Origin: Escherichia phage AV101
Sequence record: OQ973471.1
Reading direction: 5' to 3' (one strand)
DNA length: 64,000 bases
The notes beneath the pieces were generated by a model that made no database searches, was not told where the DNA came from, and saw nothing but the letters and a program-made list of their open reading frames with translations. Positions 61,922 to 64,000 of this stretch are shown here, one piece after another. The position numbers were made by a program, and so were the translations under genes. Numbering within the stretch: position 1 is the first letter of the stretch; each line of letters starts with the position of its first letter.

Positions 61922-61978
61922 CGCTTTATTCAATAAATAATTACAGTAAAGTTATTTGCATGGAAGGGAGGGAACACT

Positions 61979-62125
61979 ATGTTTTACATGATGTTACTCC
62001 TCATCCTCCTGATCGGGATTACCTTTACTCTCCTGGGTCTACCCGATCAGTCCGGTAAACAGACGCCCACTTCGGCGCATCCGGTTTTGAGTTCAGGTTC
62101 GTCCGCACTGCTGTGGGCAGTGTAG
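61979..62125 (+). CDS. small hydrophobic peptide (48 aa, below the ORF-track cutoff)
   Basis: Manual translation MFYMMLLLILLIGITFTLLGLPDQSGKQT...; GGAAGGGAGGG upstream. Confidence 0.4.
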   Translation: MFYMMLLLILLIGITFTLLGLPDQSGKQTPTSAHPVLSSGSSALLWAV

Positions 62126-62636
62126 CTCAAAGAGGAGAGGACTTTTCAAATTAGTTGGGCTGTAGTATAGTAAATTTTATGGTGTAAAGAGTCGGGCGAC
62201 TAGCGGTGTAAAGGTTGAGGCCAAGCACAGTCCTAGGACGAGGACTCCGGCTCCATAAGTCAATATCCACCTTGCATGGTGTCAGTGGACGCACTTGACC
62301 GTCGGAGAACGAAACTCCCTGTTGTAGCGTGATTAGCTCAGAAATAGAGAGCACCCCGTTGGCAAGTCGACACCAACACAAGGGGAGGTCGGGGGCGCTA
62401 ATCTCCATCACGCCGACAACATTATGAGTCTTCCATAGAGGGTTCATAATGTTGCGTCAAAGGGCAACAAGGTTCCTGTTGGTCGAATTAACTTGATTCA
62501 TAGTTCCTACTGATCTTCCCGGATTCGAAGGAGCACCAACAGGCGAGACCGGATGCGTAAGTTCCGGCAAAATGTTGGTGGGTGTGACATAGTCCGCGAA
62601 TGGAAATGTCCAACAAACAACAACAAAGAGGTAGTT
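62126..62636 (+). ncRNA. candidate structured RNA or long structured leader
   Basis: About 510 nt with no credible ORF; perfect 11-bp hairpin CAACATTATGA/TCATAATGTTG (62414-62457) and CCTGTTGG/CCAACAGG pairing. Confidence 0.25.
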
Positions 62637-62885
62637 ATGATCAATTTAGAGAATTTACAGAAGCAACTGGGTTGGGATGGGGTTTCATGCACTCTGGTGA
62701 AATCTGAAGACTCAACCAAGGTAGAAATCTCAGGACGGAAGCGTGCCATCGCTCTGGTGGACAAGAAGTTTGAGAACTACGATGCCCTGTATAATTTCTC
62801 GGCCTCGTGTCAGGCTGTTTGGGTTGAGTCTGTGGAAGTTAATTCAGACAACACCATCAAAGCAGTCATGGGCTGGCTGAAGTAG
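62637..62885 (+). CDS. hypothetical protein
   Basis: Start at MINLENLQ with AAGAGG RBS. Confidence 0.5.
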   Translation: MINLENLQKQLGWDGVSCTLVKSEDSTKVEISGRKRAIALVDKKFENYDALYNFSASCQAVWVESVEVNSDNTIKAVMGWLK

Positions 62886-62889
62886 ATTA

Positions 62890-63763
62890 ATAGTGCGGTG
62901 GTCTTGAGTACACCGCAACTTAATTTAAGGTTTTGTCAATAACGGGTTACAAAGTATAGTTAACCTACTGAACGAAAAGCTGTTTGGGCATTAGACAAAC
63001 ACTTCGATGTGAACCCAGGACATGGCGTCTTGTGCTCAAATAGGTTTTCGTTTTCGTTGTGCGTGACTTTGCGGGTTTTTAGAAACTGACCAAGCAAATA
63101 ACTGCTAATGATTCCGAAGTTCTGATGGCGGCGTAACAGCCTATAAGTCAGTGAGGTCTTCCGATTCCTCATCACCAAATTCGGCGCACTAAAATAGACG
63201 GGAGGGTGTGATTAATAATCTCCCGTCGACAATGCCGTTATATCTGACTGCCCAAAGGGGATAAGCTCCTGAGTAAGCAGAGGTGGGTTGCCTAAGTCAG
63301 ATGGGATGTAAGGTCAGCGCTGGCCGAGCATTTGGGTTCGACTCCCTAAAACGGCACCACATCTTTGAGGATATTCTCACGAGTATCTTGAAAGATGTGA
63401 GCGAAGTCTTGCCATCAGCCCTGATCCCTGGCAGGTGAAGGGCACACAAATCGAAGTGCCTTGACAATTTATCTTAAACCCAAAGGTTGATCTACAAATT
63501 GGACGGCCAATCCGGTGGACGATAACAGCATATTGGGCTATACTGTTGAGTCAGGGCACTTCGATTTGTGAACTTGAGAGAGCATTGGGTGAAATAGACC
63601 ATGCCTTGCAGATTGCGATGCCTACACATTCCGGACACTGGTGGGCACCAAGAAGAACTCAGTAGCAGACGAGCCATCAGGGTTAGCTACCCGGCGCGGC
63701 GAGGACTGGGAGGCCGAACTAAGGGGAAACCCGAGACAGGCGTAGTATTCTCAAGTTCACAAA
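62890..63763 (+). ncRNA. candidate structured RNA locus
   Basis: About 870 nt without credible ORFs; 16-nt and 12-nt exact long-range complements; tRNA-like 3' end at 63332-63359. Confidence 0.25.
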
Positions 63764-63973
63764 ATGAAGAGCATTAAAGAACTCGCAAAGGACCTGAAAT
63801 TGGTATCCCTGGCTTGTACCACTGAGTGTTCTTCATCTTTGGGTGATTCTATGTTGCCGGGCTATCAACCCATGCTTGCTGGAGCAACCAGCGGCTCTGA
63901 ATCAACCAGCCAGTCTCGTTTGGTCCGAGCGTTAGAGGACAAGTTGCTTCTACATGGAAGCTGCGAGTTGTAA
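63764..63973 (+). CDS. hypothetical protein (doubtful)
   Basis: 69-aa ORF with ATG start but no recognisable RBS. Confidence 0.2.
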   Translation: MKSIKELAKDLKLVSLACTTECSSSLGDSMLPGYQPMLAGATSGSESTSQSRLVRALEDKLLLHGSCEL

Positions 63974-64000
63974 CATTTGGTTGCAACTTTGATGGCTCTG

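Follow-up and report, generated by a model that had tools for sequence, protein, structure and literature searches.

A conserved tRNA-like RNA with no anticodon loop lies beside a tmRNA-like tag unit in an RNA operon of Ackermannviridae phages

Results

An array of structured RNA modules

The window analysed here is a stretch of 64,000 nt from Escherichia phage AV101 (OQ973471.1), a Vi01-like member of the Ackermannviridae. It contains an array of structured RNA modules that is free of protein genes and apparently driven by a promoter. A promoter-like site is followed by a stem-closed hairpin, a tmRNA-like tag unit, a tRNA-like RNA that we call module M and further modules; in relatives, the array then runs into tRNA-Met, tRNA-Asn, tRNA-Tyr and tRNA-Leu. 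The features are as follows:

62933-62960, + strand: sigma-70-type promoter-like site (TTGTCA, 16 nt, TATAGT; 10 of 12 consensus positions)
62980-63043, + strand: stem-closed hairpin module U (13-nt strands 62980-62992 and 63031-63043, enclosing 38 nt)
63044-63227, + strand: tmRNA-like tag unit (PK1-like region, tag, stop hairpin, PK2 and PK3)
63080-63082, + strand: in-frame TAG of the tag unit, followed by an A-rich spacer
63104-63106, + strand: resume codon GCT
63104-63133, + strand: tag ANDSEVLMAA, ten codons (GCT AAT GAT TCC GAA GTT CTG ATG GCG GCG)
63134-63136, + strand: tag stop codon TAA, inside the loop of a small hairpin
63151-63156/63167-63172 and 63161-63164/63181-63184, + strand: PK2
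63197-63204/63220-63227 and 63185-63189/63206-63210, + strand: PK3
63228-63233, + strand: linker GACAAT between the tag unit and M
63234-63359, + strand: module M, an anticodon-less tRNA-like RNA of 126 nt
63234-63239/63350-63355, + strand: acceptor stem of M, with an A-A mismatch at 63240/63349
63241-63249/63295-63303, + strand: arm 1 of M, with two small apical hairpins
63304-63309/63328-63333 and 63312-63316/63321-63325, + strand: arm 2 of M, capped by GCGC
63332-63348, + strand: T arm of M, followed by discriminator A63356 and CCA 63357-63359
63360-63397, + strand: hairpin CATCTTTGAGGATA/TATCTTGAAAGATG, abutting the CCA of M with a gap of 0 nt
63764-63836, + strand: stem-closed module (ATGAAGAGCATT ... 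AGTGTTCTTCAT)

The hexamers of the promoter-like site are identical in all seven aligned Ackermannviridae, and the site would be expected to drive the whole RNA operon. In 7/7 phages, module U is paired at 12-13 of its 13 positions, with compensatory variants (GGGCATT/TGTGCTC, GGGCACC/GGTGCTC and GAGTCCT/AGGACTC). Relatives break or insert exactly at the GACAAT linker, where a cassette junction falls at about 63231/63232. The CATCTTTGAGGATA/TATCTTGAAAGATG stem encloses a larger module containing a T loop in relatives, and the module at 63764-63836 is homologous to the GAGCATT...AGTGCTC modules found 3' of the tag unit in HK633/T1-like phages. The ORF at 63764-63973, which overlaps this module, is probably spurious; a protein-coding reading of the ORFs overlapping the RNA locus found no support, as none of them matches a PHROG or Pfam family. 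A remodelled element clearly derived from tRNA-Val lies 900 nt upstream of M.

Module M folds as a tRNA-like RNA

An earlier sequence-only reading had noticed that positions 63332-63359 resemble a T arm, an acceptor 3' strand, a discriminator and a CCA, and the sequence is exactly as it described: TTGGG (63332-63336), the loop TTCGACT (63337-63343) and CCCTA (63344-63348) are followed by AAACGGC (63349-63355), A63356 and CCA (63357-63359), which is the geometry of a tRNA 3' half (T stem, 7 nt, discriminator, CCA). The T stem has five positions with one U-U mismatch, and the 7-nt T loop is the canonical UUCGACU. GCCGTT at 63234-63239, which that reading considered too distant for a standard tRNA, proved to be the true 5' acceptor strand, and the two strands close a four-way junction composed of the 6-bp acceptor stem with its A-A mismatch, a long arm 1 with an elaborated 45-nt tip, arm 2 with its tetraloop, and the T arm. 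M thus has the acceptor, T stem and loop, discriminator and CCA of a tRNA top half in tRNA geometry. At 126 nt it is outside the normal tRNA size (about 70-90 nt), and the failure of any anticodon arm to fold was likewise borne out, since both inner arms close in hairpins and neither has a 7-nt anticodon loop. Arm 1 also contains a three-codon frame (GCT CCT GAG TAA) that varies little, with TAA or TAG as its stop in three variants.

The fold of M is supported by comparison between phages. The RNAalifold consensus has 38 pairs, five of them compensatory. Across six distinct sequences 97.4% of cells are paired and five pairs have changed on both sides, all five in a single sequence, that of Shigella phage MK-13, the other copies being nearly identical; none of 500 shuffles reached this, and controls in which the partners were slid by 1-3 columns gave 34-50% pairing and at most one two-sided change. 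Among these changes, the acceptor pair GCCGTT/AACGGC has become GCCGCT/AGCGGC in MK-13, with a G-U intermediate in KP6F1. Our own covariance model scores M at 153.5 bits. The single-sequence fold of M is no better than those of shuffled sequences (z = -1.4). The T-loop consensus GGTTCGANTCC is, on its own, not beyond chance: with at most one mismatch it occurs five times in the 64 kb against 4.0 expected, the only exact match being the T loop of M.

A 134-nt stretch containing M is present in 198 Ackermannviridae records, in 185 of them at 95-99% identity, its flanks being about 80-90% and neighbouring segments 74-88% identical, below M itself. Since the copies outside MK-13 are nearly identical, recent horizontal transfer may explain part of this similarity. 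Judged by these comparisons, M is under selection. It occurs in Vi01, KP6F1, EP75, Se_EM4, SeF3a and MK-13; EspM4VN and Det7 lack it, and in them the CATCT stem follows immediately on the PK3 hairpin. M is therefore a present-or-absent cassette at one fixed junction, just 3' of the tag unit, and the cassette carries both acceptor strands. About half of the Ackermannviridae that bear the tag unit are without M, which is thus dispensable. The CCA is kept in 14/14 other copies, where the discriminator is T as against A in the window; U73 is combined with G1-C72 and C2-G71 in most copies. Of M, phage fGh-Ecl02 carries the 3' half alone, and the 5' sequence nearby is a poor partner for it; the local GCCGTT is missing there and the GCTGTTT found upstream of M (62979-62985 in the window) is present. 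The M model weakly matches (18-20 bits) a 66-nt tRNA-like sequence, UCCGGTG...CGCCGGAACCA, in two contigs (L204 and L209), which aligns as M minus arm 1. Two N4-like contigs (L168 and L242) show the layout of the window again in unrelated sequence: a tag unit, a gap of 6-8 nt and then a long tRNA-like RNA that lacks an anticodon and has ACCA at its end. A scan of viral contigs with the generic pattern GGGTTCGACTCCCNNNNNNGGCNCCA returned ordinary tRNAs.

Standard tools gave no call. ARAGORN found 0 tRNA or tmRNA genes in the window, and Rfam had no family match there at gathering thresholds. On M, RF00005 gave no match even at E-values up to 10, nor did a group I intron or any other Rfam family, the only hit in E-value mode being the T arm of tmRNA over 13 nt (10.5 bits). 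The same finders and Rfam returned nothing usable on relatives of the window. The sequence-only reading had made its proposal depend in part on a call by such tools, a demand that asks too much of a mimic without an anticodon and is outweighed by the comparative evidence: the conservation in 198 records, the paired fold and the compensatory acceptor change argue that the flagged feature is real. Two of the options offered by that reading, a tRNA-like structure and a part of a larger RNA element, both hold: the motif and GCCGTT close a conserved 126-nt tRNA-like module, which is itself one unit of a long structured-RNA operon.

A tmRNA-like tag unit precedes module M

A tag domain of tmRNA type, with a resume codon, a degron-type tag of ten codons ending in Ala-Ala, a stop codon in a hairpin loop and pseudoknots, lies at 63044-63227 and not in M. 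In this unit, 88.9% of cells are paired and covariation is 0.205 against 0.103 in shuffled alignments (0/500). The tag peptide is conserved through synonymous codon changes, and because selection acts at the peptide level the tag is very probably translated; the unit itself lacks both a start codon and a tRNA-like domain. Of 5426 complete E. coli genomes, 350 (about 6%) carry it, and it is spread over at least five unrelated groups of phages and mobile elements of enterobacteria: Ackermannviridae, Drexlerviridae, N4-like Schitoviridae, lambdoid prophages and plasmids of ~95-115 kb. In the T1-like and SSU5-like elements, a promoter lies about 10-30 nt before the unit. No adjoining NCCA-ended tRNA-like RNA accompanies it in ESP2949-1, in two contigs (L153/L238) or in the SSU5-like plasmid. 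In the HK633/T1-like RNAs, the 'ACCA' after the GCCGGAGATCAG...CCGG hairpin is a doubtful CCA end, as it varies (CATCA, CGCCA) and overlaps a recurrent CACAAC leader motif.

No genome record inspected annotates the tag unit as an RNA gene. ARAGORN called no tmRNA in any of 77 loci, and the unit matches the Rfam model tmRNA_permuted (RF04321) weakly, at 21 bits (E = 0.1) against a gathering score of 47. In the literature searched, we found none of six tag peptides, nor any enterobacterial phage tmRNA-like RNA. The tag unit does not figure in the lists of phages given in papers on tmRNA (PMC4131195; PMC11915505, which names only DS6A), and a 2024 review of the Ackermannviridae makes no mention of tRNA.

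Discussion

Our analysis identifies M as a gene where the genome records inspected show nothing or only short hypothetical proteins. Without an anticodon, M is unable to decode. We think it probable that M is a tRNA mimic complete in itself, which undergoes maturation by tRNA-processing enzymes and acts through its tRNA-like top half. M would display what tRNA-maturation enzymes read, namely stacked acceptor and T helices followed by an unpaired discriminator and CCA, from which we infer a cut by RNase P 5' of G63234 and 3' trimming that halts at CCA63359. Processing of this kind would free a stable 126-nt RNA and would at the same time fix where the tag RNA terminates and where the following module starts. 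The mature RNA may draw off, as a decoy or sponge, a factor with affinity for the acceptor, elbow or CCA ends of tRNAs; alternatively, it may be the acceptor that partners the tag unit beside it.

The last of these roles could be extended to a split or '5'-open' phage tmRNA, in which M is the acceptor piece and the tag unit the coding piece, charged M entering stalled ribosomes and ANDSEVLMAA being added. We consider this unlikely. It would account for a tag that is under peptide-level selection in a unit with neither start codon nor tRNA-like domain, and for the NCCA-ended T-arm RNA directly 3' of the unit both in Ackermannviridae and in N4-like contigs, where its sequence is unrelated; two-piece tmRNAs do exist (PMC11915505). 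The known ones, from alpha- and beta-proteobacteria and cyanobacteria (RF04321), place the acceptor piece first, whereas here the coding part comes first and the acceptor part second, and their pieces share the acceptor stem and P2, whereas M holds both acceptor strands and so is not joined to the unit in this way. M also has no G3-U70, and we found no conserved complementarity between it and the tag unit: an 8-nt match, TTTGGGCA/TGCCCAAA, is lost in EP75-type phages, and RNAduplex of M against the upstream RNA gave long meaningless duplexes. Further against a split tmRNA, the unit occurs without M in about half of the Ackermannviridae that bear it and without an adjoining NCCA-ended RNA in the other elements listed above. 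A more ambitious form of this proposal, to which we also give little credence, is that M and the tag unit are two halves of a new viral trans-translation system, a non-alanine mimic sending stalled ribosomes to a separate mRNA-like RNA from which the degron ANDSEVLMAA is added; more broadly, host ribosome rescue would be hijacked or re-programmed by the TLD-less tag RNAs that hundreds of phages, prophages and phage-plasmids of enterobacteria carry.

It is also improbable that M is mere 'punctuation', a tRNA-shaped signal for RNase P and 3' nucleases that frees the tag RNA and the neighbouring modules and does nothing else. That M sits precisely at the boundary of two modules (6 nt before, 0 nt after), that the operon continues into tRNAs and that the cassette is dispensable would all suit such a signal. 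Processing would not call for the inner arms, yet these covary and match the acceptor and T arm in conservation; phages without M have no tRNA-like element at that junction and manage, and an ordinary tRNA would do as punctuation.

Less probable still is that the flagged motif forms the 3' terminus of a one-piece phage tmRNA of conventional type, 381 nt long (62979-63359), with GCTGTTT at 62979-62985 pairing with AAACGGC at 63349-63355. The two strands are complementary over seven bases, one U-G pair included, they enclose a genuine tmRNA-type tag with pseudoknots, the total length is that of a tmRNA, and fGh-Ecl02 retains GCTGTTT in the absence of the local GCCGTT. A 5' end at 62979 was rejected in view of the local helix, the cassette pattern and the closeness of the promoter to the tag unit in other phages. 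GCTGTTT is the outer part of the 13-bp helix of module U, formed with 63031-63043 and compensatorily kept in 7/7 phages, and is thereby taken from pairing with AAACGGC of M; it is invariant even in phages without M, the 3'-strand change of MK-13 is compensated in the local GCCGTT strand, and the cassette brings both acceptor strands with it. In the T1-like and SSU5-like elements, the short gap between promoter and tag unit leaves no space for a 5' acceptor strand. The alanine determinant G3-U70 is absent with either strand, position 3:70 being C-G with the local and U-G with the distal one, and the ends are not paired around the tag in the manner of RF00023. ARAGORN found 0 tmRNAs in the 77 loci and the Rfam tmRNA models score far under threshold. 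A P2-like helix, GGCATT 62987-62992/AATGCC 63231-63236, is not kept in EP75/Se_EM4-type phages. A brute-force search for 5'/3' acceptor complementarity over the 77 loci returned noisy matches.

Lastly, a decaying tRNA pseudogene (an option of the sequence-only reading), an intron-split tRNA gene or a chance match is extremely unlikely: despite the absence of a tRNA call, the mismatches in the acceptor and T stems and the tRNA-Val-derived element upstream, M is 95-99% identical across 185 genomes, outdoes its flanks in conservation and keeps its helices by compensatory changes, no group I intron or other Rfam family matches it even at E-values up to 10, and deleting either arm restores no anticodon loop. 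We thus reject one-piece tmRNA, decayed tRNA and chance as the identity of M.

The tag unit next to this probable mimic has every hallmark of a tmRNA message domain and no tRNA-like domain, and neither ARAGORN nor Rfam detects it. Should the tag be in use, phages would manipulate ribosome rescue or protein tagging in an undescribed way, and the neighbouring tRNA mimics would be obvious candidates for the route by which the unit reaches the ribosome.

Parallels to parts of this locus are found in several known systems. MALAT1 mascRNA is a tRNA-shaped element within a longer non-coding transcript that is recognised by RNase P and defines the end of the upstream RNA; it is eukaryotic and a cloverleaf of normal size, and its sequence is unrelated to M. 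GOLLD and ROOL are large, ornate, protein-free RNA loci of phages and prophages, typically beside tRNA genes; the locus described here differs in being an array of short stem-closed modules rather than one large fold, and it matches no Rfam family at gathering thresholds.

Like M, the tRNA-like domain of tmRNA has an acceptor stem, a T arm, a CCA and no anticodon, and M adjoins a tmRNA-type tag with pseudoknots. M differs from this domain in having C3-G70 instead of G3-U70 and two elaborate inner arms in place of the open D loop and helix P2. The tmRNA of mycobacteriophage DS6A is little beyond a TLD, and molecules of this type act as inhibitors of the host's tmRNA (PMC4131195, PMC11915505).

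M also belongs with a kind of conserved non-decoding RNA that has been known from phage T4 for fifty years and whose function was never assigned: RNAC (species 1, 139 nt) and RNAD (species 2, 119 nt) still have unassigned roles (PMC3014915, PMC9697503). Like them, M is a non-decoding phage RNA of ~120-140 nt within a tRNA gene cluster and has tRNA-like terminal helices. RNAC has a canonical T arm (CCGGG TTCGAAT CCCGG), after which come 7 nt that can pair with its own 5' end, together with long inner arms and no anticodon loop; RNAD ends ...AACGGCGCACCA, and the 10-mer CCTGAGTAAG is common to it and M. These likenesses do not extend to significant sequence similarity, the local alignments of M with RNAC and RNAD being reached by 26/500 and 48/500 shuffles (trimmed global z = 2.05); on the T4 locus, the M model matched neither rnaC nor rnaD, its only match being a tRNA-Thr at 17 bits. 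The best T4 likeness of all, between the tag unit and the 3' end of RNAD, was reached by 6/500 shuffles and is not significant, and homology of M or of the tag unit to the T4 RNAs was rejected on these grounds. In T4, no tag unit lies beside RNAC and RNAD, and RNAC encodes no CCA. The loci have one further neighbour in common, a homing-endonuclease gene, which is segB in T4 and an HNH gene in some Ackermannviridae.

A conserved tRNA-like RNA without an anticodon

Our analysis showed that the tRNA-like bases at 63332-63359 are the 3' end of a discrete RNA module of 126 nt (63234-63359), here called M. These bases are exactly as the sequence-only reading gave them: a T arm with one U-U mismatch (TTGGG 63332-63336, TTCGACT 63337-63343, CCCTA 63344-63348), read directly from the sequence, is followed by AAACGGC (63349-63355), A (63356) and CCA (63357-63359). 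Taken alone, the T-loop consensus is within chance expectation (5 matches with one mismatch in the 64-kb window, against 4.0 expected), and its sole exact match in the 64 kb is the element itself. ARAGORN, to which the sequence-only reading had looked for a tRNA-like call, returned no tRNA or tmRNA in the whole window; Rfam gave no match at gathering thresholds and, in permissive mode, matched only the T arm here, to the tmRNA model (13 nt, 10.5 bits). The ORFs overlapping M had no PHROG or Pfam match.

A search with M alone recovered 198 records, of which 185 matched at 95-99% identity, clearly above the level of its flanks. Its consensus fold is a four-way junction.

Consensus structure of M
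Acceptor stem, 6 bp plus an A-A mismatch
Arm 1, 9-bp stem with two small apical hairpins
Arm 2, 6 + 5 bp with a GCGC cap
T arm, the fourth arm

This fold pairs 97.4% of cells. Five of its pairs have changed on both sides, all of them in phage MK-13; none of 500 shuffles reached this covariation, and no more than one such pair remained when the partners were slid. As a single sequence, M has an unremarkable fold energy. The distant GCCGTT (63234-63239), which had been noted as complementary to the 3' strand, is a real partner, since the acceptor stem shows a compensatory change from GCCGTT/AACGGC to GCCGCT/AGCGGC, with a G-U intermediate in KP6F1. CCA is present in all 14 other fetched copies, which carry T as the discriminator where the window has A. 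Neither inner arm has an anticodon loop, in agreement with the earlier failure to fold an anticodon arm, and M is therefore unable to decode. Selection maintains M as a self-contained RNA that carries the acceptor, T arm and CCA half of a tRNA but lacks an anticodon. The original observation is confirmed, and its interpretation was essentially right.

Organization and mosaicism of the locus

The region 62900-63450 matches about 400 phage records, nearly all Ackermannviridae (Vi01-like: Kuttervirus, Taipeivirus, Agtrevirus); the matches listed are mostly unannotated, the remainder being labelled only as hypothetical proteins or HNH endonuclease. In relatives the region runs on into tRNA-Met, Asn, Tyr and Leu genes, which places the element at the head of the phage tRNA region, cut here by the window end at 64000. 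From the promoter, the order is as follows.

Features of the locus
62933-62960, promoter-like site, both hexamers unchanged in relatives
62980-63043, hairpin U, directly 3' of the promoter, with a 13-bp covarying closing stem
63044-63227, tmRNA-like tag unit, with resume codon at 63104 and stop codon at 63134-63136
6-nt linker
63234-63359, M
Hairpin 3' of M, expanded in relatives to a T-loop-containing module
Further structured segments
63764-63836, stem-closed module of the GAGCATT...AGTGCTC type

The last module type follows the tag unit in the lambdoid phage HK633, N4-like IME11 and T1-like phages, its stem shows compensatory changes between the window and HK633/IME11, and in one contig (L161) a T arm closes its body at precisely the position it would have in a tRNA. 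The locus thus consists of arrayed stem-closed modules, which are often derived from tRNAs, and M sits in this tRNA operon as a cassette with another RNA module on either side. Segment-by-segment comparison of relatives revealed a sharp mosaic junction at 63231/63232: Vi01, KP6F1, EP75, Se_EM4, SeF3a and MK-13 carry M, some with an extra cassette just 5' of it, and EspM4VN and Det7 lack M, the preceding hairpin there joining directly the CATCT stem that begins at 63360 in the window. Cassettes of 92-161 nt were also seen at the 63231 junction in other relatives, and the locus as a whole is a hotspot for insertion and mosaicism.

A tmRNA-like tag unit beside M

More surprising is what lies beside M: a tag RNA of tmRNA-like type that is widespread and lacks a tRNA-like domain. 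Rfam in permissive mode gave a weak tmRNA_permuted match at 62986-63136, and the frame GCT AAT GAT TCC GAA GTT CTG ATG GCG GCG TAA encodes ANDSEVLMAA and a stop; a TAG lies upstream in the same frame, and a start codon is absent. The E. coli ssrA tag is ANDENYALAA. The segment ~63050-63219 matches unrelated phages at 70-82%, namely Drexlerviridae such as ESP2949-1, IME11 and HK633, and a pattern scan of viral contigs recovered 77 tag-bearing loci, in none of which ARAGORN called a tmRNA. All 23 distinct tag sequences have ten codons and are separated from the TAG by seven in-frame codons. Judging from these sequences, the tag is under peptide-level selection as an ssrA-like degron, since its invariant residues show synonymous codon variation: Ala1 (GCA/GCT), Asn2 (AAC/AAT), Leu7 (CTG/TTG) and Ala10 (four GCN codons).

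An alignment of 34 units places the stop codon within the loop of a small hairpin and pairs 88.9% of cells overall, with a covariation score of 0.205 against 0.103 for shuffled alignments (0/500 reaching it) and at most 0.078 for slid controls. Both stems of pseudoknot PK2 are 98-100% paired, with five compensatory pairs, and those of pseudoknot PK3 100% and 87.5%, with four; 5' of the resume codon, a PK1-like pseudoknot is plausible but has weaker support. In T1-like contigs and an SSU5-like E. coli plasmid the promoter lies only ~10-30 nt upstream of the unit. The unit has homologues in Drexlerviridae, N4-like, lambdoid and SSU5-like elements. Of 5426 complete E. coli genomes, 350 carry it, at 141 places on chromosomes and 219 on plasmids; among the E. 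coli matches listed, almost none had a feature annotated under the match. Six of the tag peptides had no occurrence in the literature searched. The only viruses for which the 2014 tmRNA census lists ssrA are mycobacteriophages and Bacillus phage G (PMC4131195), and the 2025 tmRNA database paper has no mention of a form from enterobacterial phages (PMC11915505).

In N4-like contigs, other anticodon-less tRNA-like RNAs ending in ACCA lie 6-8 nt after the tag unit (137 nt in contig L168; 124 nt in L242) and fold as three- or four-way junctions, the 124-137-nt forms being four-way. A 66-nt form of these RNAs (TCCGGTG...TCTGGTTCGAGTCCAGACGCCGGAACCA) occurs in L204, L209, IME11 (L005) and L242, and the M covariance model matches it weakly, aligned as M minus arm 1. 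Several such anticodon-less genes with ACCA ends, all uncalled, were seen just 3' of the tag units of L168, L180, L242, L204, L209 and L005.

Possible roles of M

RNase P and 3' trimming would release M as a 126-nt RNA, the same processing would define the ends of the neighbouring modules, and the released M would act via its tRNA-like half. M could serve the tag unit as its acceptor partner, the two forming a split tmRNA-like system. The appeal of this role is that the tag seems to be translated while showing no obvious route into the ribosome. Against it, half of the phages carrying the tag unit are without M, M lacks the alanine determinant, and no helix is common to the two RNAs. M could also be a decoy or sponge for a factor recognising tRNA acceptors, elbows or CCA ends, such as SmpB, EF-Tu, a synthetase or a defence enzyme of the host that targets tRNAs; TLD-only tmRNA is known as an inhibitor of trans-translation (PMC4131195). 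Lastly, M may be mere processing punctuation.

A one-piece tmRNA-like RNA of 381 nt ending at the same CCA, closed by GCTGTTT (62979-62985), which is complementary to AAACGGC, fails on several counts: CTGTTT together with the seven bases after it forms a local helix with 63031-63043 (12-13 of 13 positions paired in each of the seven phages, with compensatory variants), GCTGTTT is invariant with or without M, covariation with the 3' end is seen in the local strand GCCGTT, and position 3:70 is never G-U. The long-range pairing fits fGh-Ecl02 alone; this phage carries just the 3' half of M, located after HK633-type modules, and looks like a recombinant.

Comparison with known systems

M fails the defining tests of a tRNA (no anticodon arm, no model match), of a one-piece tmRNA and of a permuted tmRNA; it would function as their tRNA-like half does while belonging to none of these classes. 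Its closest analogues are the phage T4 stable RNAs RNAC and RNAD (139 and 119 nt), encoded in the tRNA cluster beside segB, and M is a new, unannotated member of this class of phage tRNA mimics, which is poorly understood. In RNAC a canonical T arm is combined with a closing helix that resembles an acceptor stem; RNAD (L252, 3054-3172, minus strand) shares the 10-mer CCTGAGTAAG with arm 1 of M and a similar 3' end (...AACGGC..ACCA), although sequence similarity of the two RNAs to M is not significant. The RNAD 3' end CATCACAGCAGAAACGGCGCACCA resembles CATCACCAAATTCGGCGCACTAA of the tag unit at a level reached by 6 of 500 shuffles; with the shared 10-mer, this is a weak hint that the T4 RNAs may be related to modules of this locus. 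In Salmonella phage SeF3a (L002, 1677-2192) and phage SP1, an HNH homing-endonuclease gene lies within the 5' part of the tag-unit region, inserted between the window equivalents of ~63043 and 63052, an arrangement that recalls segB in the T4 tRNA cluster.

Other elements near the locus

A second anticodon-less tRNA-like element, clearly tRNA-Val-like, lies at 62328-62415 (+), with acceptor GCGTGAT and D arm TAGCTCAG...GAGAGCA, a hairpin in place of the anticodon loop, a degenerate T loop and no CCA; its Rfam tRNA score is 24.3 bits, below the threshold of 29, and the surrounding 61925-62580 is 94-97% conserved in relatives. The 'putative tRNA-Ala' annotated in EP75 (L001, 2436-2502), just upstream of the operon promoter, was called by neither ARAGORN nor Rfam; it has the look of a further tRNA-like remnant, ending in ...GGTTCGATTCCGCACCCTCGCCA with no clear CCA. 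Just upstream of the window's RNA-operon promoter, ~62581-62926 (~345 nt) has no counterpart in any relative at megablast level, its flanks being only ~22 nt apart in phage A221; ORF 62553-62885 (110 aa), mostly within it, had no Pfam or PHROG match. The 69-aa ORF 63764-63973, which carries a hypothetical-protein annotation in some relatives, overlaps the stem-closed module and is probably not a gene. In its inner 7 bp, the stem of hairpin U is similar to the acceptor-like GAGCATT/AGTGCTC stems that modules of other phages have. A long inverted repeat, GGGCACACAAATCGAAGTGCC / GGCACTTCGATTTGTG at 63440-63460 and 63555-63570, encloses ~95 nt with a second promoter-like site (63516-63544), is conserved in fGh-Ecl02 and is probably another stem-closed module.
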